Source of the DNA: a phage
Reading direction: 5' to 3' (one strand)
Assembly: GCA_021683455.1 (NCBI GenBank)
Contig: GCA_021683455.1_3051.1
Length of the DNA: 64,000 nt
This document shows, in pieces, positions 2,289 through 17,102 of this stretch (positions are counted from its first letter, which is position 1; every line of letters starts with the position of its first letter). Below the pieces are notes generated by a model. The model had not been told where the DNA came from and made no database searches. It saw only the letters and a list, made by a program, of their open reading frames with translations. Made by a program: the position numbers and the translations under genes.

Positions 2289-2456
2289 CTATAGCAAAAG
2301 TTGTGTTTCATTTAATTGTTCTTCCGAACTTTCTGAAACTGGTAGTTCTTTAATGTAATTATAGCAAGGCCCAGGATGTACAGGACCTTTGTCTGTTTCA
2401 ACAACCAATGCAGAATCGATTGGAGTTTTACAGACAACACAAATCTTATCTGACAT
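2289..2456 (-). CDS. Small Cys-rich protein (55 aa; uvsY.-2 position)
   Basis: Hand-translated MSDKICVVCKTPIDSALVVETDKGPVHPGPC..; SD GAGGAG upstream; below track size cutoff. Confidence 0.45.
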   Translation of the reverse strand: MSDKICVVCKTPIDSALVVETDKGPVHPGPCYNYIKELPVSESSEEQLNETQLLL

Positions 2457-2482
2457 GATTGTCTCCTCTGAATTATATATCT

Positions 2483-2490
2483 ATTTATAA
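2483..2490 (-). promoter_or_regulatory. T4-type late promoter TATAAATA
   Basis: Exact TATAAATA on minus strand about 27 nt upstream of ATG at 2456. Confidence 0.5.
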
Positions 2491-2579
2491 CCCCATCTTA
2501 AAGCGCATTTCTTGTACACGCTTTAAACATGCTTCCATTTCTGCTAAAAGTCTAAATACTTCTTTATAATTTGTCATAT

Positions 2580-2807
2580 TTACCCCATATCTCTCATATG
2601 CATATCAATGCCCATATCTTTAGAATAAAAATATTCATCAAGATATCCGGCAAATTTTCCTTTAATATAAAGGACATCTTCACCACACGGGTGGTCGGCC
2701 AGGATACGAATATCCTGACGCTTAAGATTATGCTTTTTCATTAAGAATTGAATTTCCGTTTCAAATTCTTCTTCATAATTAAAAGCATCATCAATGCTAT
2801 ATCTCAT
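2580..2807 (-). CDS. Hypothetical protein (75 aa; uvsY.-1 position)
   Basis: ORF immediately downstream of uvsY, start overlaps uvsY stop. Confidence 0.6.
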   Translation of the reverse strand: MRYSIDDAFNYEEEFETEIQFLMKKHNLKRQDIRILADHPCGEDVLYIKGKFAGYLDEYFYSKDMGIDMHMRDMG

Positions 2808-3220
2808 TATTTTCCAGCCTCAAATGCTCGCATGTCTTGAATATGCTTAATAGCAAATCCACGTGATTTAATAGCATCAAGAGCTCCGCTACAGAAATCC
2901 AATAAAATCCCCCAATATTGTAACGAGGTATCAACCTTTAAAACATCCTTATCAGCTGATAGAACTGTTTTCATTTCTGATTTCTCGTAACGATCCATAC
3001 TAAATTCATCACCATCTCCTCGTCCCGAGTAGTAATCTAATTTAGCTTTAAGAGCAACTTTTTTCTGTGCTTCAATTCTAAGCATTTCCTTTTTAATACT
3101 TGAATGCTTATTAAGCCATTTACTATATAACATCACATTATTAGCTGCTTCATACTGTAATTTAGTCGAATCTATAAACACATCTTTCTTCAATTCTTCT
3201 TGAAGATCTTCTAATCTCAT
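2807..3220 (-). CDS. uvsY: UvsY recombination mediator
   Basis: 137-aa ORF MRLEDLQEELKKDVFIDSTKLQYEAANN..; matches T4 UvsY length and sequence as recalled. Confidence 0.9.
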   Translation of the reverse strand: MRLEDLQEELKKDVFIDSTKLQYEAANNVMLYSKWLNKHSSIKKEMLRIEAQKKVALKAKLDYYSGRGDGDEFSMDRYEKSEMKTVLSADKDVLKVDTSLQYWGILLDFCSGALDAIKSRGFAIKHIQDMRAFEAGK

Positions 3221-3258
3221 ATTGTTCTCTATTCAATTGTTATTGGATGGACTTAGAT

Positions 3259-3290
3259 TCATTATACCACGTTTTAACGTGAAGCATTAT
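3259..3290 (-). promoter_or_regulatory. Candidate MotA-dependent middle promoter for uvsY
   Basis: Minus strand ATGCTTCA (MotA-box-like) about 12 nt upstream of TATAAT. Confidence 0.45.
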
Positions 3291-3685
3291 ACCCTATTAC
3301 TGGAAGCCAGTTGCAGTTTTATCTGCTCAATATCATCAGGGTTATCGATGACTGAAAAGCGTATTTCTACTATCAGAGTATAATCATCATAAACGGGTAT
3401 CACATTAACTGCTAATTTATCAATACGTGGCTCATAGTTTCTTACTGCGCTTTCAATGTTACGCTCAACCGTGTCAGCAGTAAGAGGAGTCATATTCTCA
3501 AAAAGTTGGTCAGATAAATCACATCCAAATTCAGGGTCAAACGGTCTTGAACCTTTTCTTGTTGTAATAATTCCTAAAAGACTATTTTTAATTGACCTTA
3601 ATCCAAGTGATCTTGAAACGTCTTTGTTCCAATCCATTTTCATCTCTGGGTCAATATCAGAATAAAGCTTATTAATATTTGCCAT
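3287..3685 (-). CDS. 25: Baseplate wedge subunit gp25
   Basis: 132-aa [22 protein letters not shown]..; T4 gp25 length and sequence. Confidence 0.9.
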   Translation of the reverse strand: MANINKLYSDIDPEMKMDWNKDVSRSLGLRSIKNSLLGIITTRKGSRPFDPEFGCDLSDQLFENMTPLTADTVERNIESAVRNYEPRIDKLAVNVIPVYDDYTLIVEIRFSVIDNPDDIEQIKLQLASSNRV

Positions 3686-4311
3686 TACAATAGCTCAAAG
3701 AATTCTTTGAGTCCTCTTATTACATGAGCGTGAGTTTTTCCACACTCTGGACATTTAATTGGAACAGCCAAATAAACAGTAGGCTTTAAAAGCATATCTT
3801 TTATAGCTACAATATCTGACTCTGTGATGATAGAATATAAATCTTCCAATTCTTTTTCATTTAAGTCTTCAACTGGAATGCTTTCCCCGTTAGCGTGAAT
3901 CGTTTCTATACATGATACTATCATGTGGGCTATATTTTTATCATCAAAAATTTTAGGGTAATGGAATTTAATTTTAATGTCACCCAGTGTATACCAGAGG
4001 TCTTCTGGTGCATCTATTTGTGTATGTAATAGATTTATATGGGTTGGTATTTCAGTTCCACAGGTGCACTTCCAGGAGTTTTCGTGATTAACTTCACCAA
4101 GAGAATGTGCCCATAAATGAATCAATAATAGTTCTGATTCTTGGCGGTTTAAATCTTTTGCATTTGTACAGTCTTTGATTAGCTTTTTAACAATTGCTTC
4201 TACAGAACCATTATTTTTGGCAGTAATAAGTTCTAGATATTCTTTAAGCGTGAATGCGCGACAATTGATTATTTTAGAACCAACTCTCACATCAAATTTG
4301 TATTCATACAT
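3685..4311 (-). CDS. 26: Baseplate hub subunit gp26
   Basis: 208-aa ORF; T4 gp26 length and position. Confidence 0.85.
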
Positions 4312-4332
4312 ATTTAGCTCCTTTATTTATCA

Positions 4333-4340
4333 TATTTATA
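4333..4340 (-). promoter_or_regulatory. Late promoter TATAAATA for 26-25
   Basis: Minus-strand TATAAATA 22 nt upstream of gp26 ATG. Confidence 0.55.
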
Positions 4341-4344
4341 AATA
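4337..4344 (+). promoter_or_regulatory. Late promoter TATAAATA for 51-27-28-29
   Basis: Plus-strand TATAAATA overlapping the minus-strand copy; SD AAGGAG 4351-4356; ATG 4362. Confidence 0.55.
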
Positions 4345-4361
4345 GAATAAAAGGAGCATCT

Positions 4362-5114
4362 ATGGCAAACATTATTCGTTGTAAATTACCAGATGGTGTT
4401 CATCGTTTTAAACCATTTACGGTAGAAGATTATCGAGATTTTTTGTTAGTTCGAAACGATATAGAACATCGGTCACCACAAGAACAAAAAGAAGTAATTG
4501 CTGATTTAATTGCTGATTATTTTGGAGACTATCCAAAGACTTGGCAACCATTTATATTTTTGCAGGTATTTGTAGGTTCAATAGGTAAAACTAAAGTACC
4601 AGTCACATTTGTATGTCCAAAATGTAAAAAAGAAAAGACAATTCCATTTGAAATATATCAAAAAGAATTAAAGGAACCTATTTTTGATGTAGCTAATGTT
4701 AAAATTAAATTAAATTTTCCTTCTGAGTTTTATGAAAATAAAGCAAAGATGATTACTGAAAATATTCATTCTGTTCAAGTAGATGAAATGTGGTATGATT
4801 GGAAGGAAATTAGTGAATCAAGTCAAATAGAACTTGTTGACGCCATCGAGATAGAAACATTAGAAAAAATTCTCGATGCAATGAATCCTATTAATTTAAC
4901 ATTGCACATGTCGTGTTGTGATAAGTACATTAAAAAATACACTGATATAGTAGATGTGTTTAAGCTATTAGTTAATCCAGATGAGATATTTACTTTTTAT
5001 CAAATTAATCACACGCTTGTAAAAAGTAATTATAGCTTAAATTCAATAATGAAAATGATTCCTGCCGAGCGCGGATTCGTATTAAAACTGATTGAGAAGG
5101 ATAAACATCAATGA
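4362..5114 (+). CDS. 51: Baseplate hub assembly protein gp51
   Basis: 250-aa ORF; T4 gp51 length and position. Confidence 0.85.
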
Positions 5115-6283
5115 GTATGTTACAACGTCCTGGATATCCAAATCTCAGCGTTAAATTATTTGAGAGTTATGACGCTTGGAGTAATAATAGATTTGTTGAA
5201 TTAGCTGCTACTATTACCACATTAACTATGCGTGACTCTCTTTATGGTCGAAATGAAGGAATGCTGCAGTTTTATGATTCTAAAAACATCCATACAAAAA
5301 TGGATGGAAATGAAATAATTCAGATTTCTGTAGCTAATGCAAACGATATTAATAATGTTAAAACACGAATTTATGGATGCAAGCATTTTTCCGTGTCAGT
5401 AGATTCAAAAGGCGATAACATCATTGCTATTGAATTGGGAACTATTCATTCTATAGAAAATCTTAAATTTGGTAGACCATTTTTCCCTGATGCCGGTGAA
5501 TCTATAAAGGAAATGCTTGGCGTAATTTATCAAGATCGTACATTATTAACTCCAGCGATAAATGCTATTAATGCTTATGTTCCTGATATTCCATGGACTA
5601 GCACATTTGAAAACTATTTGTCATATGTAAGAGAAGTTGCTCTAGCGGTAGGAAGCGATAAGTTCGTATTTGTATGGCAAGACATCATGGGAGTTAACAT
5701 GATGGACTATGATATGATGATAAATCAAGAACCATATCCAATGATTGTAGGTGAGCCAACTTTAATAGGTCAATTCGTCCAAGAATTGAAATATCCATTA
5801 GCATATGATTTTGTTTGGTTGACTAAATCAAACCCGCATAAACGCGATCCAATGAAAAATGCTACTATCTATGCTCATTCATTTTTAGATTCTTCATTAC
5901 CAATGATTACTACAGGAAAGGGTGAAAACTCTATTGTAGTGTCAAGGTCAGGTGCTTATTCTGAAATGACTTATAGAAATGGATATGAAGAAGCTATTCG
6001 TCTTCAGACTATGGCGCAGTATGATGGTTACGCTAAATGTTCTACTGTCGGTAATTTTAACTTGACTCCCGGCGTTAAAATTATTTTTAATGATAGTAAA
6101 AACCAATTTAAAACAGAATTTTACGTTGATGAAGTTATTCACGAATTATCAAATAATAATTCCGTAACTCATCTTTATATGTTCACTAATGCAACGAAAC
6201 TGGAAACAATCGACCCAGTTAAGGTTAAAAATGAATTTAAAACTGATACTACCACTGAAGAAAGTAGTTCTTCCGATAAGTAA
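5111..6283 (+). CDS. 27: Baseplate hub subunit gp27
   Basis: 390-aa ORF; ATGA overlap with gene 51; T4 gp27. Confidence 0.9.
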
Positions 6284-9636: not shown

Positions 9637-10601
9637 TGTATTCTTTAGAGGAATTTAATAATCAAGCAATAAACGCAGACTTCCAACGTAATAATATGTT
9701 CAGCTGTGTTTTTGCTACAACTCCATCAACTAAAAGCTCATCGTTAATAAGCTCAATTAGTAACTTTGCTTATAATAACTTGGGTCTAAATTCAGATTGG
9801 TTGGGATTAACTCAAGGTGATATTAATCAGGGAATTACCACGCTAATTACCGCTGGCACACAAAAACTAATAAGAAAATCGGGAGTCAGTAAATATCTTA
9901 TTGGCGCTATGAGTCAGCGTACTGTTCAGAGTTTATTAGGCTCATTTACAGTTGGTACATATTTAATTGACTTCTTTAACATGGCATATAACTCATCTGG
10001 ATTGATGATATATTCTGTAAAAATGCCAGAGAATAGATTATCCTATGAAACTGACTGGAACTATAATTCTCCTAATATTCGTATAACTGGAAGAGAATTA
10101 GACCCTTTGGTTATTTCATTCAGAATGGATTCAGAAGCTTGTAACTATCGTGCAATGCAAGACTGGGTTAACGCTGTTCAAGACCCAGTAACTGGATTGC
10201 GTGCTTTACCGCAAGATGTCGAGGCAGATATTCAGGTTAATCTTCATTCTCGCAATGGATTACCTCATACTGCGGTGATGTTCACTGGATGCATTCCAAT
10301 ATCAGTGAGCGCTCCTGAGTTATCATATGATGGAGATAACCAAATAACTACATTTGACGTTACTTTTGCGTATAGAGTGATGCAGGCTGGAGCAGTTGAT
10401 AGACAAGCTGCCCTTGAATGGCTTGAATCTGCTACTATAAATGGTATTCAAAGCGTTCTCGGAAATAGTGGAGGTGTTACTGGACTATCTAATTCGCTTT
10501 CACGACTTAGTAGATTAGGGGGAACTGCAGGAAGCATTTCAAATATTAATACTATGACAGGAATTGTCAATTCGCAAAGTAAAATATTAGGAGCAATATA
10601 A
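9636..10601 (+). CDS. 54: Baseplate tail-tube initiator gp54
   Basis: 321-aa ORF; T4 gp54; start overlaps gp48 stop. Confidence 0.9.
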   Translation: MYSLEEFNNQAINADFQRNNMFSCVFATTPSTKSSSLISSISNFAYNNLGLNSDWLGLTQGDINQGITTLITAGTQKLIRKSGVSKYLIGAMSQRTVQSLLGSFTVGTYLIDFFNMAYNSSGLMIYSVKMPENRLSYETDWNYNSPNIRITGRELDPLVISFRMDSEACNYRAMQDWVNAVQDPVTGLRALPQDVEADIQVNLHSRNGLPHTAVMFTGCIPISVSAPELSYDGDNQITTFDVTFAYRVMQAGAVDRQAALEWLESATINGIQSVLGNSGGVTGLSNSLSRLSRLGGTAGSISNINTMTGIVNSQSKILGAI

Positions 10602-10605
10602 CAAT

Positions 10606-10623
10606 GGGGACCGAAAGGTCCCC
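10606..10623. terminator. Bidirectional terminator hairpin GGGGACC-GAAA-GGTCCCC
   Basis: 7-bp GC stem with GAAA loop followed by T-run, between converging gene 54 and minus-strand genes. Confidence 0.6.
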
Positions 10624-10629
10624 ATATTT

Positions 10630-10920
10630 TTATTTACGGAATGAAATAAAAGCAGCAACTGAAGAAACAGAGGTTTCTTCAATATAAACCTCAATTTTTA
10701 CCGGAGCTTCTGACTCAAATTTACCTGTTACTACACCTTGGAAAATACTTTCAGTCTGTTCTGGCTTTGAAAAATTTTCAGAAGGAAAAATTCCAAACTT
10801 TTTATCGGTTCCGAAAATTTTAATAAATTCATCATAAACTGCTTCATTGAAAGCGTTATCAGCGGGAATAACGCCCTCAACGACGAGTTCTTGACCTAAA
10901 AAGCGCAAAGAAGATTTCAT
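10630..10920 (-). CDS. Hypothetical protein (96 aa; alt.-3 position)
   Basis: ORF with SD GAGGAA; lies downstream of the early promoter at 10952-10981. Confidence 0.6.
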   Translation of the reverse strand: MKSSLRFLGQELVVEGVIPADNAFNEAVYDEFIKIFGTDKKFGIFPSENFSKPEQTESIFQGVVTGKFESEAPVKIEVYIEETSVSSVAAFISFRK

Positions 10921-10951
10921 TTTGTGTTCCTCATGTTATGTCAGTAAAACT

Positions 10952-10981
10952 ACTATAACACAATACGAGGGACTTGTAAAC
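10952..10981 (-). promoter_or_regulatory. Early sigma70-type promoter (GTTTAC-N18-TATAGT)
   Basis: Minus-strand GTTTAC 18 nt upstream of TATAGT; same architecture recurs 12 times in the window. Confidence 0.6.
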
Positions 10982-13038
10982 TACATTTTGAACTTTTTAG
11001 ACATTCCGTTGATGTTAACCAAAGAAGCTAAGATTTGAGAAACTTCGCTTTCCTCTTCTTTTGATTCTTCTACAAGGAATTGATTAAATCTAGCCATTGG
11101 ACGAACTTCTCCGGTTTCCATCAAATGGTCACCATCATATACCGATTCCTCTAATTGTTCAGAAGGAGGAACAATCGTGCCTTCAATTAGATACTTATTA
11201 TAAGCGGTTTCTTTCATCATGTACGTACTTACTTTATTAATCTTCAGTAAAATTCCACGTGGTAGAATAACTTCAGCTTCTGATGGAAATCCTGATAAAT
11301 GACCTGGAACGATAACTTTGATTCGCTCAGCTCCTTTAATTACCATACCCACGCTAGTTTCAGCATCTTCATTAGCATATGTAGAATGACTACCCATATG
11401 CATCAAATCTTCTGCATCAACAGAACCTTCTCCTTCGCCAGAAAATACTGCGCCGGAATCATCTAGAGCCATATAGTTTTTACCATGCTCACCGAAGATA
11501 TTTGGTTTAAGCGATGTGGATACGAAGTTCTTGAAATAGAACATTTTATTTTCAATGTTATGACGCAAAGTTTTAAAGGTAACTTCTTGTCCACGGTAAA
11601 GTGTAGTTCCTGGAGGAAGAACTGAACCTTTAGCGAATGCAGAATCAAGCGTCTCAATATGTTTAATAGCTCGTTCCATATATTCTTCACGGGTAGAATC
11701 TGGTTTACCTAAAAGGAATGAGTTCATTTCAACATATGAATCTGCACAATAATCTTCAATTACATCAGATTCAGCCTGAGTTAATCCTTTTGGAGTTACT
11801 TCAGTACTTGCATATTCATATGCCTGAGCGGCAGATTCATCAATTAATTTATAAATTCCATTCATTACAAATTGAATAATAGCTGTCTTTTCATCTGGTG
11901 TAGCTTTAGAACCTTTAACTAAATCATTGATAATTTTCTTAATAACATCAAAACTATTAGAAATATTAATGTCAGCAAGATCGCTTAAAATTTTATCAGT
12001 TTTATAATCAAAGAATTCTTTATTCTTTAAATATTCTTGAGAACCTTGATATGTTATATCGCTCTGCAACTTGATAGATGGATCACGTAAACGTGCATGG
12101 GCTAATGCAATATGATTTCGGAAACTTTCTAGTTCATAATCGTTAGATTTAAAACGAGAAGCACTTCTCATACCACCGATAGCTCCTTTGCTAAAGTTTG
12201 AACCAATCTGGATAACCCCGGAGTTCATTGGTCCTTCTGCTTTATACACCGGAACTTTAGATTCAAACTCTTGATATTTCTTAGCAGCGAAGCTATCGCC
12301 TTGAAGCGAAGCATCGACAGTAGAATATTGAGCTTGTGCTGCTAATCGACGACTAATTTTAGTTTTCTGAATAACAGCTTGATCCGTACGCTTATCATTT
12401 TCTAAAGCAATAGAAGCAGCAACTGCGACAGCTTTAGGAACAGCATTACCTGTTTTAACATCTACATAAACATCACCGACCTTCGATTCAACTTTTGTGA
12501 ATAGCTCTGTTGAAATAGGAGGTACACCTGGAATGTCTTCTAAATTGGCATTTTTACGGTAAACCATAATATATGCATATTTCTTATCATAGTCCCAGAT
12601 TTCCTTTAAAAGAACATATCGACCTGCTCCTTTAGTACGTACTAAGCGGTCAGCAATAACTTGCATTTGACGAGCTGCGCCATTTGTTTTACTTTTTAGT
12701 ACGCGGAATAGGCATGCATCAATTTTATACTGTTTCATTGTTTGAAGAGCAGTATCAAAAACAGCATTAATGACGCCAATTGGATTTCCACCCAAGTTTT
12801 TAAGCTTAACTAACGATAATTTCTCGTTGACACCTATCATTACGATATGCATCATTTTGTCGCCTGGCTTAACGTTTTTATTCGTATCACCACCAGAGGT
12901 GTATGTACAAAATCTAAATCCAGGAAGCACGCTTTCTTCACCGGCTTGAATAGCAAAAATTTGAGGTATTTTATGCTTAGGATTTAAGTTAACAACCGGC
13001 GCCGAAGCGCCGTCAAATAATTCTGTAATAAGTTCCAT
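10981..13038 (-). CDS. Alt-family ADP-ribosyltransferase paralog (685 aa)
   Basis: N-terminus MELITELFD.. closely similar to neighbouring alt; C-terminal ART motifs YRGQ, FVSTSL, EAEVILPRG. Confidence 0.85.
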   Translation of the reverse strand: MELITELFDGASAPVVNLNPKHKIPQIFAIQAGEESVLPGFRFCTYTSGGDTNKNVKPGDKMMHIVMIGVNEKLSLVKLKNLGGNPIGVINAVFDTALQTMKQYKIDACLFRVLKSKTNGAARQMQVIADRLVRTKGAGRYVLLKEIWDYDKKYAYIMVYRKNANLEDIPGVPPISTELFTKVESKVGDVYVDVKTGNAVPKAVAVAASIALENDKRTDQAVIQKTKISRRLAAQAQYSTVDASLQGDSFAAKKYQEFESKVPVYKAEGPMNSGVIQIGSNFSKGAIGGMRSASRFKSNDYELESFRNHIALAHARLRDPSIKLQSDITYQGSQEYLKNKEFFDYKTDKILSDLADINISNSFDVIKKIINDLVKGSKATPDEKTAIIQFVMNGIYKLIDESAAQAYEYASTEVTPKGLTQAESDVIEDYCADSYVEMNSFLLGKPDSTREEYMERAIKHIETLDSAFAKGSVLPPGTTLYRGQEVTFKTLRHNIENKMFYFKNFVSTSLKPNIFGEHGKNYMALDDSGAVFSGEGEGSVDAEDLMHMGSHSTYANEDAETSVGMVIKGAERIKVIVPGHLSGFPSEAEVILPRGILLKINKVSTYMMKETAYNKYLIEGTIVPPSEQLEESVYDGDHLMETGEVRPMARFNQFLVEESKEEESEVSQILASLVNINGMSKKFKM

Positions 13039-13041
13039 GAT

Positions 13042-15135
13042 TTATCCTTGAACGAACTTGTAAGGCATGTTTGCAATATCTATGCAAGACGCAATAATTC
13101 CAAGAGATGATTCTACTTTTTGTTTAACATTTGATGAAACAAATGATGCAAAGTCAACTCTGTCTTCTATTTCAATATCACCTGTCATTGCAACTACTTC
13201 ACCAGTTTCCATTAGACGGTCTCCGTCATAGATTATCGATTCGGTGAGCTCTTCCGTGGTCATAACTTCAGCTTGAATGAGTTTTGTATTATTAGATGTT
13301 GTTCCGTCATTATTAGAAGCATCAGTTATTTTATTAACTTTGACCATCAATCCACGCGGTAGAATAACTTCAGCTTCTGTTGCTATTCCGAGACTTCCTG
13401 GATATACAACATTAACTTTATGAGCTCCATCAATTGCCCATCCTATTTGAACTTTAACGTATTCAGGATTTTCTTTATACGCTCTTATTTCGTTTGGATT
13501 AATAGTTATTCCTTCTTCATTTTTATCAACTGTTAATTCATTGCGAGCTTCTGGTTCTAAAAGACCAATACCAGCATGTGTGATTCCAAAACGTCCAAAA
13601 ATGATAGGAGTTAAAGAAGTAGATACAAAATTTCTGAAGTAGAACACTTTATTTTTAACTAACGCTTCATATATAGGAGCAGTCATACTTTGAGCACGAT
13701 AAACTGTAATGCCTTCTGGTATACGGTCACCATTTTCAAAAGCTGAATCTAAGTTATTTATAGCAGATTCAATTTCTTTTTCATTCATTACATCATATCG
13801 TTCTGGATTGTAACGACCTAAAAGAAGATTATTGATGTCAGTATATCCTGAACCGCAATATTCTCTAATGCCACGCTTTTGTGATGGAGTATATTTAGAA
13901 CCATCGCGTGCAATAGTAATATCAATCATTGGACCAGCACCAATTCCAGAAAAACTGTAAATCATTCGTTTGAGGAATTTAGTTTTTGCTGCGTTCCAGG
14001 AATTTTTAGTTATTTCTTCCCAGACTTCATCTGATTGTCCTTTACGATTTTTATTATGATTAGCAAGCCATTTATCTTTATAATCTTCAAAGAATTGATT
14101 TACAGCTGCTGCGTATTTCTCTAAACATTTTATTGAAGTAGTTGGTTCATTTTTAATTGCATTAAAAATTACTTCTTTAATTTTTTCTGAAACTTCACCG
14201 ACTTGACTCATTGGAAAGAATTTATAATCATAGTGAAGTTCATCTGCCGTTCCTTCAGCAATAATTTTTGCTGCCTTTGTTTTAGAAGCTAATGAATTAA
14301 TTCCAATTTTCATTTCTTCTGCTTCGGGAATTAAAGGTGCAGTAGCTGGTTTATTAAAATTGGCTGCTGTAGATTCATACTTCTGGAATAATTCACTTTC
14401 AAATCTAGAAGATTCCAATGACTGACTTTGTGCAATTGCTCTACGGGAAATTTTAACTTTAACGATTACAGCTTGGTCAGAACGTTTATCATTTTCTTGT
14501 GCAATAGATGCTGCAATTGCCTCATTTTTAGTTACTTGAGCTCCAGTATCTTTATTGATATAAACATCACCGACCTTCGATTCAACTTTAGTAAAGAGCT
14601 CTGTACTAATTTCCGGAACTCCTGGAATGTCTTCTAGTGATACATTTTTGCGATGTATAAGAATATATGCATACTTTTTATCGTAATCCCAGAGTTCCTT
14701 AAGAAGGACGTATCTGCCACCTGAACGACTACGGATAAGTCTATCAGCAATAAGTTGAATTTGTCGAGCTTGACCGGCGGTTTTAGACTTAAGAATACGA
14801 AGCATGCAGGCATCAATTTTATATTGACGCATTGTTTGCATTGCAACAGTAAAAACTGAATTGATATAATTAATCGGGCTTGGACCAAGACCTTTTAATT
14901 TAGCAATTGAACCTTTAGCAGTTAATGTAAAAGGAACAATATGCATCATTTTATCGCCCATCTTTAAATCGCGATTAGTATCACCTCCAGATGTATATGT
15001 ACATAAACGAAAGCCTGGCTGTTCAATTGCATCATCAACATGAACTGAAAAAATTTGCGGTATTTTCTTCTTTGGATTTAAGTTTGTAATCGGAAGAGTA
15101 GTATCTTCGTCAAATAATTCTGTAATAAGTTCCAT
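13042..15135 (-). CDS. alt: Alt ADP-ribosyltransferase (697 aa from second ATG)
   Basis: MELITELFDEDTTLPITNL..; ART motifs YRAQ, FVSTSL, EAEVILPRG; adjacent to ligase gene as in T4. Confidence 0.8.
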   Translation of the reverse strand: MELITELFDEDTTLPITNLNPKKKIPQIFSVHVDDAIEQPGFRLCTYTSGGDTNRDLKMGDKMMHIVPFTLTAKGSIAKLKGLGPSPINYINSVFTVAMQTMRQYKIDACMLRILKSKTAGQARQIQLIADRLIRSRSGGRYVLLKELWDYDKKYAYILIHRKNVSLEDIPGVPEISTELFTKVESKVGDVYINKDTGAQVTKNEAIAASIAQENDKRSDQAVIVKVKISRRAIAQSQSLESSRFESELFQKYESTAANFNKPATAPLIPEAEEMKIGINSLASKTKAAKIIAEGTADELHYDYKFFPMSQVGEVSEKIKEVIFNAIKNEPTTSIKCLEKYAAAVNQFFEDYKDKWLANHNKNRKGQSDEVWEEITKNSWNAAKTKFLKRMIYSFSGIGAGPMIDITIARDGSKYTPSQKRGIREYCGSGYTDINNLLLGRYNPERYDVMNEKEIESAINNLDSAFENGDRIPEGITVYRAQSMTAPIYEALVKNKVFYFRNFVSTSLTPIIFGRFGITHAGIGLLEPEARNELTVDKNEEGITINPNEIRAYKENPEYVKVQIGWAIDGAHKVNVVYPGSLGIATEAEVILPRGLMVKVNKITDASNNDGTTSNNTKLIQAEVMTTEELTESIIYDGDRLMETGEVVAMTGDIEIEDRVDFASFVSSNVKQKVESSLGIIASCIDIANMPYKFVQG

Positions 15136-15158
15136 CATATCCTCTCTAGTGTTTATTC

Positions 15159-15166
15159 TATTTATA
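15159..15166 (-). promoter_or_regulatory. Late promoter TATAAATA upstream of alt
   Basis: Minus-strand TATAAATA about 21 nt upstream of alt start, followed by SD GAGAGGA. Confidence 0.5.
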
Positions 15167-15171
15167 AAATT

Positions 15172-15189
15172 AAAGGCCCGAAGGCCTTT
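15172..15189. terminator. Terminator hairpin AAAGGCC-CGAA-GGCCTTT
   Basis: GC stem with CGAA loop flanked by A/T runs. Confidence 0.55.
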
Positions 15190-15376
15190 AATAATCTATT
15201 GGTAAGAGAGTACGATATATTTCAAACTTTGGACCTTTTTCATAAGCATCAAAAGTTTCTGTGAATTTATTATAAGCATATGCATCTATAAATTCGAGAA
15301 TGACTTGTGATACAGAAGTAGAAACATCTCCACCTTCTTTTTGAGCAATGACAATTGTTTCTAAGTAAGCTTTCAT
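15188..15376 (-). CDS. Hypothetical protein (62 aa)
   Basis: ORF with ATGA overlap to ligase stop. Confidence 0.5.
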   Translation of the reverse strand: MKAYLETIVIAQKEGGDVSTSVSQVILEFIDAYAYNKFTETFDAYEKGPKFEIYRTLLPIDY

Positions 15377-16836
15377 AGACCAGTTACCTCATGAAAATCA
15401 CCAAATACATCCTCGAATGTATTAGCTTTAGTTTTATCTTCACGTAAACGAATTGCAATTGGAAGAAATAGCTTAACGTAATCAGTACGTCCATCTAATT
15501 TTACCCAGCCGTTGCATTCGCACTCTAGAATTTTTCCAATATAATAATTTTGGTTTTCCATAATGCGAGTACGGTCAAGTTCATGCGATTTTACGCCGGC
15601 TTTATCTTTTAAGCCTGAACCAGCATTTACTTTAATTTTTCCACACTCTGATTCAAGAATGAAACCACCTGCTTTAGTAGGGTCTTTACGGTGAGGATAA
15701 ATTCCTACAATTTTTAAATCAACATCAATTACTTCTTTAAATTTATAAAGATTTTTTGAACGAGCATTTTCCCATAATCCATCGATATTTTTGAGAATAA
15801 TACCTTCAAGACCTTGGTCAATATACTTTTTGTAAATTACCTTAGCTTCATCTAGGTTATTTACTATCTGGTTTTCAATTAAAATTACTTTATCATAGCC
15901 TGATGTCATTTGTTCTAGTTTAGAAAAACGTACATCATATTTTAAACGAAACGCCGGAAGACCGTATATTTCTACCAACGGAACATAATCCCAGACCTGA
16001 AACTTCATGCATTGAGCTTCTTTTTCTGAAATAGTTCCCTTTAAAGATTTATTAGCGATTCCATTAGAAGTAGTACGTGATTCAGCTACTTCGGCGAATT
16101 CTTTAGCTTTACTAATTTCAGGATAAGCATCAAAAAGAAAATCTAGGCCTTCTGGCTCCTTTTCAACTTGCTCATGGTATACCAATTCGCCATCAATTAA
16201 CACACCTTCTGGATGAATCTGGCGAGCTTCTGCAGTCATTTTGATTAACTCTTCCTTGAGAAGATCTAATCCTAGATATTCATTACCAGCTCGTGATAAA
16301 AGACGAACATCATCTAATTCATCACCTCTGACTTCAGCAAAGCACCGAGCTCCATCAGCTTTTAATTGGGCAAAGGCTGGAAATTTGATATTCTTATTAA
16401 TGCCTTTTTCATCATAAGAACTTGCCAGCATTTGAGGTTGTTCAGGAATTAAACCTGGCCAAACTTTGTTTGCAATAGATACTGATGCACCGCATTCAAG
16501 GTCTCGCATCATCACCCGACGCAAAACTTCAACATCATCTTTTTTACCGTCAGTAATATATCCAGTTAATTCCTCAATTGCCGCATTTCCAGTCAATTTC
16601 CGAGTAGCTAATGTGAATTCAATGAAGTCAAGCATATCGGTAAGAGTCAACATTCCAAAACTCTGGGTAGCAATACCAGGTTTAGGCCATTTCTTGATAT
16701 AATACTGTAACCCACGAGAATAAGTCAGACGATATACTCGTTTGAGCAATTCATTATCTTTATTCTTTTCAAGAATTGCTTGCTTTTGCTTAGTTGAACC
16801 AATAGATGCTATTTCATTCAGAATTTTAAGAATCAT
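15373..16836 (-). CDS. 30: ATP-dependent DNA ligase gp30
   Basis: 487-aa ORF MILKILNEIASIGSTKQKQAILEKNKDNELLKRVY..; T4 DNA ligase. Confidence 0.95.
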   Translation of the reverse strand: MILKILNEIASIGSTKQKQAILEKNKDNELLKRVYRLTYSRGLQYYIKKWPKPGIATQSFGMLTLTDMLDFIEFTLATRKLTGNAAIEELTGYITDGKKDDVEVLRRVMMRDLECGASVSIANKVWPGLIPEQPQMLASSYDEKGINKNIKFPAFAQLKADGARCFAEVRGDELDDVRLLSRAGNEYLGLDLLKEELIKMTAEARQIHPEGVLIDGELVYHEQVEKEPEGLDFLFDAYPEISKAKEFAEVAESRTTSNGIANKSLKGTISEKEAQCMKFQVWDYVPLVEIYGLPAFRLKYDVRFSKLEQMTSGYDKVILIENQIVNNLDEAKVIYKKYIDQGLEGIILKNIDGLWENARSKNLYKFKEVIDVDLKIVGIYPHRKDPTKAGGFILESECGKIKVNAGSGLKDKAGVKSHELDRTRIMENQNYYIGKILECECNGWVKLDGRTDYVKLFLPIAIRLREDKTKANTFEDVFGDFHEVTGL

Positions 16837-17102
16837 TGTTCATCCTTTAGAGTTTGGTTTACAGCTCTATTATAAATCAATTCATCATTAAGCTCAGTCA
16901 AAGACCTGTGGTACGTGGTTCTAACTTTATTTCCTTGCATCCAGTGCTTGACGTAAATGAAACCTTGCTCTACACATTTTTTAAAAATTCGTTCGTCTTT
17001 TTGAGCTCGGAATTCTGGATTGCATCTAAAAAATTGATTTACGTGACCGTAATCACGTGTAGTATTACCTTCATTTTCATAAATAGTATGAACAACAAAC
17101 AT
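16833..17102 (-). CDS. Hypothetical protein (89 aa; 30.1 position)
   Basis: ORF overlapping ligase start by 4 nt. Confidence 0.6.
   Translation of the reverse strand: MFVVHTIYENEGNTTRDYGHVNQFFRCNPEFRAQKDERIFKKCVEQGFIYVKHWMQGNKVRTTYHRSLTELNDELIYNRAVNQTLKDEQ

Follow-up and report, generated by a model that had tools for sequence, protein, structure and literature searches.

Alt of phage T4 is the textbook example of a phage enzyme that is injected together with the DNA; the T4 head carries about 40 copies of it, and what is known about the enzyme comes almost entirely from T4. The present analysis is concerned with the alt locus in a stretch of 64,000 nucleotides (nt) of phage DNA (NCBI GenBank assembly GCA_021683455.1, contig GCA_021683455.1_3051.1), the whole of which is called the window throughout. 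Two tandem genes at this locus, alt and alt.-2, are both predicted to encode full-length R-S-E ADP-ribosyltransferases (ARTs) of the T4 Alt family with intact catalytic Arg, STS and ExE motifs. T4 Alt, an NAD+:arginine mono-ADP-ribosyltransferase, modifies Arg265 of the alpha subunit of RNA polymerase, an activity known for this enzyme only (PMC2988021). Other host proteins are modified by it as well. Mass spectrometry placed two cuts of the prohead protease gp21 in T4 Alt, one behind ITE-6 and one behind LTE-619 (PMC5694885), and the trimming takes off 63 C-terminal residues (PMC5694885, PMC9026906).

The same ART fold with catalytic Arg, STS and ExE is found in the toxins Vis, C3bot, Iota Ia/CdtA, VIP2 and Certhrax. 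These are secreted bacterial proteins with other delivery domains, whereas the Alt proteins have a phage-specific N-terminal domain (N-domain), a helical region, propeptides that are removed by a protease and a long disordered insert between STS and ExE. The presence of ExE instead of QxE is the usual mark of arginine-specific ARTs. ModA and ModB are short (~200 amino acids, aa) early proteins that are not packaged, are encoded at a different locus and lack the Alt modules. They, too, belong to the R-S-E class of ARTs in this group of phages, and they modify host proteins of transcription and translation (PMC2988021). Nolan et al. 2006 (PMC1524935) counted T4 alt.-1 and alt.-2 among the paralogous duplications of alt, alongside open reading frames (ORFs) found in RB49 and 44RR. 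The alt/alt.-2 pair is already known, given its annotation in the records of hundreds of phages and the mention of the duplication in 2006. The remnant origin of the T4 ORFs, the paired processing sites, the incongruence between the N-domain and the cassette formed by the central and ART regions, and a fusion of the two genes in phage PST appear not to have been spelled out in the literature searched and are incremental to that knowledge.

Many Tequatrovirus genomes, among them those of KIT03, wV7, RB68, RB51 and RB14, share 97% nucleotide identity with the region containing the two genes, and the source of the window is therefore a Tequatrovirus (T-even phage). Its alt locus has the full, ancestral form of two tandem ART genes. 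Both large ORFs are present in those records, either as 'Alt-like RNA polymerase ADP-ribosyltransferase (x2)' or as 'alt' and 'alt.-2'. The gene for the 685-aa protein is named 'alt.-2' in the RB14 record and 'hypothetical protein; alt.-1' in the T2 record; with the same position, 96-97% nucleotide identity and 99% in the protein cluster, these genes differ from the one in the window in nothing material and are its orthologs. The gene for the 697-aa protein is the ortholog of T4 alt, equipped with a central and ART cassette of the RB14/T2 type, and the same gene is annotated as alt in RB14 and T2. Its length of 697 aa is counted from the second of two ATG codons (15135), which is the annotated start in T4, RB14 and T2, and becomes 698 aa if counted from the in-frame ATG at 15136-15138. 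The Alt propeptide is given as 7 residues in one review and as 6 in a primary paper, which would fit the use of either ATG.

A first-pass annotation of the window had proposed two tandem Alt-family ART genes of 685 and 697 aa on the minus strand, and the ORFs, Pfam family PF03496 and PHROG 802 all agree with this. PF03496 (ADPrib_exo_Tox) was matched by alt at 6.1e-38 with 130.6 bits and by alt.-2 at 5.5e-20 with 72 bits (cut-off 23.4 in both cases), and in a Pfam scan it was matched by all 69 members of the family. A second Pfam domain was sought in the same 69 members, in which only PF03496 and neither a GNAT nor a MuF domain was found. PHROG 802 ('Alt-like RNA polymerase ADP-ribosyltransferase') aligned end to end with residues 1-685 of alt.-2 (6.3e-256) and residues 1-696 of alt (2e-271), PF26846 'Tevenvirinae_ADPRT' is recorded for these proteins, and the ART fold was recognized in both proteins. 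A search of NCBIfam gave no match for alt or alt.-2, and the PDB contained no solved Alt structure, the matches there being only to ART domains of toxins. The ART signature that had been read in both genes was recovered in full (YRGQ, STS and EAE in alt.-2; YRAQ, STS and EAE in alt; positions of these and all further features are listed in Table 1), and the alignment proposed as a check of the catalytic triad placed Arg, STS and ExE in both copies. R482, S507, E587 and E589 (alt.-2 numbering) are invariant in the alignment of the 69 family sequences, and the Arg and ExE of both proteins align with their counterparts in CdtA and Iota Ia. Both proteins are predicted to be arginine-specific mono-ADP-ribosyltransferases.

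Comparison of the two proteins by BLASTP gave 41% identity overall (E = 2e-162). The identity is unevenly distributed and amounted in a codon-level alignment to 67.5% at residues 1-238, 23% at residues 239-410, 36% at residues 411-625 and 40% in the tail. The high similarity of the N-terminal ~230 aa that had been noted at first sight was thereby borne out, and the divergence described for the remainder was found in the central region; the C-terminal tail is moderately conserved, not strongly divergent, and carries an L-x-E-S...YDGD.LMETGE motif in both copies. Divergence is strongest in the central helical region and in an insert within the ART domain. At the nucleotide level the first 238 codons are 67.7% identical, and synonymous sites are near saturation along the whole gene, with a proportion of synonymous differences (pS) of 0.63 and a synonymous divergence (dS) of about 1.4 in the N-domain. 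The N-terminal similarity is therefore attributed to constraint at the protein level and not to recent gene conversion, and the duplication that gave rise to alt and alt.-2 appears, at this dS, to be old.

Structure prediction with AlphaFold2 (AF2), which had been proposed as a check, gave the same fold order for both proteins. The models had mean pLDDT (predicted local distance difference test) values of 78.6 for alt.-2 and 82.3 for alt and pTM (predicted template modelling) scores of 0.70 and 0.72, respectively, and consisted in both cases of an alpha/beta N-domain (residues ~10-195), linker helices up to residue ~240, an all-helical centre (~240-415), the ART domain (~417-625) with a disordered variable insert at ~517-545, and a helical tail. 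Across the family the central region is hypervariable, with a mean top-residue frequency of 0.19. The fold of the N-domain, to which second-tier hits most plausibly map, is possibly GNAT-like (acyl-CoA N-acyltransferase), which is to be taken as a lead only, and no family member gave a GNAT sequence match. The insert between STS and ExE is long, disordered and highly variable, comprises residues 518-565 in alt.-2 (11344-11487) and 517-545 in alt (13501-13587), and is acidic in alt.-2. Four positions ahead of ExE, alt.-2 has a Phe and alt an Ile. The insert and the residue at this position are candidate determinants of substrate choice.

With T4 Alt (gpAlt, 682 aa) the alt gene of the window shares the locus (alt.-3 ... 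alt ... alt.1, gene 30), the late promoter and the length class, and the proteins share the four-part architecture, the R-S-E residues and the gp21 sites at ITE-6 and at an aligned L-x-E. The difference lies in the central and ART cassette: identity to T4 Alt is 99% at residues 1-238, 32% at residues 239-410, 65% at residues 411-625 and 94% in the tail, and dS in the central and ART part is about 1.2-1.3. The segment at 13258-14421 (residues 239-626) and its T4 counterpart at 4680-5790 thus represent two effector alleles of alt, of which the one shared by the window, RB14 and T2 was counted in 326 phage records, compared with 175 for the T4 type. Either allele can adjoin a full alt.-2, as in MZ234031, where a T4-type alt stands next to a full-length alt.-2. 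Between the 685-aa paralog and T4 Alt the identity is ~41% overall and falls to 33-36% in the ART domain and 13-15% in the central region.

In the alignment of the family, the identities in the N-domain, the central region and the ART domain were 65, 13 and 33% between alt.-2 and alt, 45, 43 and 55% between alt.-2 and the Alt of phage JS10 (P0012), 41, 13 and 36% between alt and JS10 Alt, and 100, 29 and 64% between alt and T4-type Alt. Neighbour-joining (NJ) trees were calculated with 200 bootstraps on 185-227 columns. In the ART tree, alt.-2 was grouped with JS10-type sequences (99%) and alt with the T4-type Alt clade (100%), and an exclusive clade of alt and alt.-2 received 0% support, whereas in the N-domain tree the two formed an exclusive clade with a bootstrap value of 69%. 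It appears from these comparisons that the N-domain follows the phage and that the central and ART regions form a cassette derived from one of several old lineages. Recombination joining the two paralogs falls in the conserved N-terminal segment. Four database proteins (P0003-P0006) are 100% alt and then continue with alt.-2 sequence from about residue 40, 100, 150 or 210. In Yersinia phage PST (KF208315), a single gene for a 686-aa alt::alt.-2 hybrid is located at 3501-5561 between alt.-3 and alt.1, in which nt 1-300 are alt-type and the remainder is alt.-2-type, and which lies behind the TATAAATA late promoter of alt; it is an unequal-crossover fusion of both paralogs. This hybrid speaks for the viability of an alt.-2 cassette placed under that promoter.

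Since both gp21 sites of T4 Alt are kept in alt.-2, its protein is likely packaged in the head like Alt. At the C-terminal site, LTE-632 of alt and LEE-631 of alt.-2 are each followed by S..YDGD.LMETGE, and disorder was predicted by AF2 around both of them (residues 631-635 in alt and 629-636 in alt.-2). The P1 glutamates of both sites are at least 90% conserved in the 69-member family, E6 and E631 being nearly invariant, and the flanking patterns, in which L/I-x-E is followed by V-F-D at the N-terminal site and by S...YDGD at the C-terminal site, recur in very distant family members. Predicted sizes of the mature proteins are 69.1 kDa for alt.-2 (residues 7-631) and 70.1 kDa for alt.

With regard to expression, an exact late promoter had been assigned in the first pass only to the gene next to the ligase gene. 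Indeed only alt has the T4-type late promoter box TATAAATA directly upstream, in a context that is conserved in T4, RB14 and PST, but alt is separated from the ligase gene by alt.1. The hairpin between alt.1 and this promoter is identical in T4, RB14 and PST and is probably a terminator for upstream early or middle transcripts; due to its short T-run it was not flagged by the terminator scan. At the other end of the gene, the stop codon TAA of alt and the ATG of alt.-2 are 3 nt apart, with an AAGGA ribosome binding site (RBS) inside the end of alt. The 3-nt spacer contains no TATAAATA box, no late-like or MotA-like box was found within 660 nt upstream of alt.-2, and neither the junction nor the interior of alt and alt.-2 yielded a terminator-like site on the minus strand in the terminator scan. 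Because of the short spacer without an intervening terminator, the simplest reading is that alt.-2 would be co-transcribed late from the alt promoter. A second exact TATAAATA occurs inside alt at 13755-13762 on the minus strand, 717 nt upstream of alt.-2 and within the A-I-N codons of AINNLDSAF; it is kept in RB14, and the T4 allele has GCTATTGATAAT in its place. As a dedicated late promoter of alt.-2 this internal copy found no support, since it encodes A-I-N, is absent from the T4 allele and belongs to a motif that occurs in the window at chance frequency (10 found and 9.3 expected).

Of 500 matching phage records, at least 402, that of T2 among them, contain alt.-2 in full length, and hundreds of isolates sequenced independently carry the alt/alt.-2 pair with a nucleotide identity of 96-97%. 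When the N-domain was used as tblastn query, 1,202 phage records were obtained, in which Tequatroviruses mostly have two copies, most other genera one and a few two to three. The Alt family as a whole is small: a library of 1.84 billion representatives yielded 114 clusters at E <= 0.001, many of which align in two stretches that leave out the centre. Relative to the RB14 ortholog, alt.-2 has a dS of 0.175 and a nonsynonymous divergence (dN) of 0.007, and the resulting dN/dS of 0.04 indicates strong purifying selection. Taken by its sequence, alt.-2 is very likely a functional gene.

In T4 the gene is broken. At the position of alt.-2, the T4 genome (NC_000866) has two small ORFs at 4066-4451, alt.-1 (61 aa) and alt.-2 (67 aa), which the record text explains as an old duplication confined to the initial part of alt. 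In the nucleotide alignment they line up with residues 1-56 and 62-117 of the 685-aa protein, and the PHROGs of the two fragments match that protein (phrog_23015 at 2.1e-40 and phrog_15247 at 3.2e-38) better than Alt. A full-length Alt paralog has decayed in T4 and survives there as the remnant ORFs alt.-1 and alt.-2, in which two lesions can be recognized, namely a -1 frameshift in an A-run, AATAAAAC in T4 where the window has AATAAAAAC, and a deletion of 1,699 bp exactly between two CTAAAAAGT repeats. The frameshift of T4 without the 1.7-kb deletion is present in a metagenomic phage (L005, an ENA scaffold of 53 kb, 2319-4375), where a 61-aa ORF is followed by a 624-aa ORF from Met62; this intermediate state of decay belongs to a cluster of 36 sequences. 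In other truncated alt.-2 clusters the first residue is Met158 (7 members) or Met271 (12 members). The second copy is thus dispensable, having been lost in T4 by frameshift and deletion and fused with alt in PST.

The best overall explanation, which is held with moderate confidence, is that the locus encodes two intact Alt enzymes that are co-expressed late, packaged, trimmed, injected and directed at different targets. A single late message from the TATAAATA box upstream of alt would cover both genes, and alt.-2 would be translated from its own AAGGA RBS, 3 nt past the alt stop. Both proteins would enter the prohead core via their shared N-terminal module and be trimmed by gp21 at both ends in the same way as T4 Alt. 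After injection with the DNA, they would ADP-ribosylate arginines of host proteins before any phage gene is expressed. The conserved N-domain may serve as the virion-association module, since it tracks the phage lineage, and the central helical region together with the variable ART parts would constitute an exchangeable effector cassette that sets the choice of target. As the two cassettes stem from separate ancient lineages, the target sets of the two enzymes are suggested to differ, with a possible overlap, for which the odds are considered about even.

Several points weigh against this explanation. The searches, including that of the literature, yielded no direct evidence that the 685-aa protein is made, packaged, processed, injected or active. 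The literature searched for function, virion proteomics and an anti-defence role contained no experiment on a second Alt copy, no virion proteomics showing it and no published experiment on different host targets of two copies, and in PMC12373910 'Alt' does not occur as a whole word. Moreover, alt.-2 has no promoter of its own, so that its co-transcription is only inferred, and the gene was lost or broken repeatedly (in T4, by the metagenomic A-run frameshift and in the sequences starting at M158 or M271), from which it follows that its contribution to fitness is conditional. The phylogenetic evidence consists of simple NJ trees on 185-227 columns, in which the N-domain clade reached only 69%, and the grounds for proposing different targets are solely the sequence divergence and the tree incongruence.

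The repeated loss would be best accommodated if alt.-2 were a redundant duplicate becoming a pseudogene, which at most adds dosage on the same targets, e.g. Arg265 of the RNA polymerase alpha subunit. T4 without an intact alt.-2 grows well and its remnant has both the frameshift and the 1.7-kb deletion, the same frameshift occurs in another phage with an otherwise intact ORF, the N-terminally truncated clusters hold ~55 sequences compared with ~770 in the full-length cluster, and T4 Alt itself is non-essential (PMC9026906). Redundancy is nevertheless regarded as unlikely, given the low dN/dS relative to RB14 with unchanged catalytic and processing residues and the intact ORF in the 402 or more records. 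In addition, the paralogs split long ago, yet both were retained, they have diverged to 13% identity in the central region and 33% in the ART domain, with the ART domains in separate and strongly supported clades, and it is the alt.-2 cassette that PST retained. The enzyme could also be active without being a virion protein, either acting late inside the cell or produced by read-through from upstream, and thus be more like ModA and ModB. The missing promoter of alt.-2 and the lack of proteomic evidence for its presence in virions in the literature searched would agree with this, as would the A-run frameshift in some phages, which splits off the N-terminal 61 residues and leaves the remaining 624 aa open. 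It seems improbable for a protein that keeps the exact MELITE, the whole N-domain and the aligned C-terminal L-x-E site, all hallmarks of the family, and whose gene follows a late, head-packaged one at a distance of 3 nt and without a terminator in the gap, and the ~200-aa ModA and ModB are without these modules.

Recombination bears on the remaining alternative, namely that the N-terminal similarity arose from recent gene conversion between the tandem copies or from an assembly artefact. Such recombination does occur here, as is evident from the switches in P0003-P0006 and, at about nt 300, in PST, and the N-domains of the paralogs are each other's closest relatives, unlike the ART domains. 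At only 67.7% nucleotide identity over the N-terminal 238 codons, however, and with pS and dS about as high there as elsewhere in the gene, recent conversion as the cause is ruled out by synonymous sites near saturation, and an artefact is contradicted by the occurrence of the same pair in hundreds of independent isolates, so that this alternative is given hardly any weight. Any homogenisation must be ancient on account of the same synonymous divergence and the wide occurrence of the pair, and an ancient conversion event is compatible with the explanation by two packaged and injected enzymes.

This explanation can be extended to a more general proposal, which is put forward tentatively and falls short of being probable. 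T-even phages might inject a small and exchangeable repertoire of ARTs, each composed of a phage-specific and possibly GNAT-like N-terminal head-association domain, propeptides removed by the protease and a swappable central and ART cassette, and the alt.-2 enzyme would act on host targets other than those of Alt, such as a protein of defence or of the stress response. The cassettes would fall into at least three lineages (the T4-Alt, RB14/T2-Alt and alt.-2/JS10 types), and recombination within the N-domain would swap them, fuse them as in PST or delete them as in T4. Because T4 lost alt.-2, such a repertoire would have been missed in the T4 model system.

For the knowledge about Alt it is of importance that T4 is an unusual relative that lost the second copy, and that the alt gene itself exists in two effector versions. 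In the majority of T-even phages, T2 and many therapy candidates among them, the injected proteins probably include two different ADP-ribosyltransferases. If their targets do differ, the means by which these phages take over the host or counter its defences have been studied only in part, and T2 is a ready model for the question of the second enzyme. Furthermore, the domain pattern leads to a hypothesis on which part of Alt directs the protein to the head and which part chooses the substrate, which is useful for engineering proteins into T4-type heads.

Table 1. Features of the alt locus in the window (position 1 is the first nucleotide of the window).
Feature	Position	Strand	Remarks
alt, 697 aa from second ATG	13042-15135	-	from ORF list; third in order of transcription
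alt.-2 (second Alt paralog), 685 aa	10981-13038	-	from ORF list; fourth in order of transcription
alt catalytic motifs	YRAQ-479, R480 (13696-13698); STS 505-507 (13615-13623); EAE 587-589 (13369-13377)	-	
alt.-2 catalytic motifs	YRGQ-481, R482 (11593-11595); STS 507-509 (11512-11520); EAE 587-589 (11272-11280)	-	
N-terminal alpha/beta domain and linker helices, residues 10-238	alt 14422-15108; alt.-2 12325-13011	-	from identity and AF2
Central all-helical region (alt.-2 residues 239-415)	alt 13891-14421; alt.-2 11794-12324	-	most divergent; AF2
alt ART domain, residues 416-626	13258-13890	-	
alt.-2 ART domain, residues 416-625	11164-11793	-	variable disordered insert ~518-565
alt propeptide MELITE, gp21 site ITE-6	15118-15135	-	as cut in T4 Alt
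alt.-2 propeptide MELITE	13021-13038	-	identical to that of alt
alt gp21 site LTE-632	13240-13248	-	would remove 65 residues; aligns with T4 LTE-619
alt.-2 L-x-E site LEE-631	11146-11154	-	would remove 54 residues; same column as alt LTE
T4-type late promoter box TATAAATA	15159-15166	-	exact match; 20 nt upstream of alt start codons
GC-rich hairpin AAAGGCC-TTCG-GGCCTTT	15172-15189	-	between alt.1 and alt late promoter; read from sequence
Shine-Dalgarno GAGAGG of alt	15141-15146	-	followed by ATGATG double start 15133-15138; kept in T4 and RB14
alt/alt.-2 junction TTCAAGGATAAATC (minus strand)	13039-13052	-	alt.-2 ATG directly after
A5 run AATAAAAAC, alt.-2 codons 53-55	12874-12882	-	A4 in T4 and metagenomic relative, which splits the gene
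First 9-bp direct repeat CTAAAAAGT	12691-12699	-	gene nt 340-348
Second 9-bp direct repeat CTAAAAAGT	10992-11000	-	gene nt 2039-2047
Gene 30 (DNA ligase)	15373-16836	-	first in order of transcription of five minus-strand genes within 10,600-16,900
alt.1, 62 aa	15188-15376	-	Pfam PF24647 'Phage blade protein' 1.7e-29; second in order of transcription
alt.-3 (DUF5498)	10630-10920	-	fifth in order of transcription

At the borders of the locus, alt.1 begins within the ligase gene, whose last 4 nt (15373-15376) it shares. Mutants of T4 Alt.-3 with a C-terminal extension escape the CmdTAC defence system (PMC11618068). In the window, alt.-3 has its own early-type promoter, TTTACA-17-TATAGT, at 10952-10980 directly past the alt.-2 stop, and a bidirectional terminator at 10604-10625 is common to alt.-3 and gene 54.

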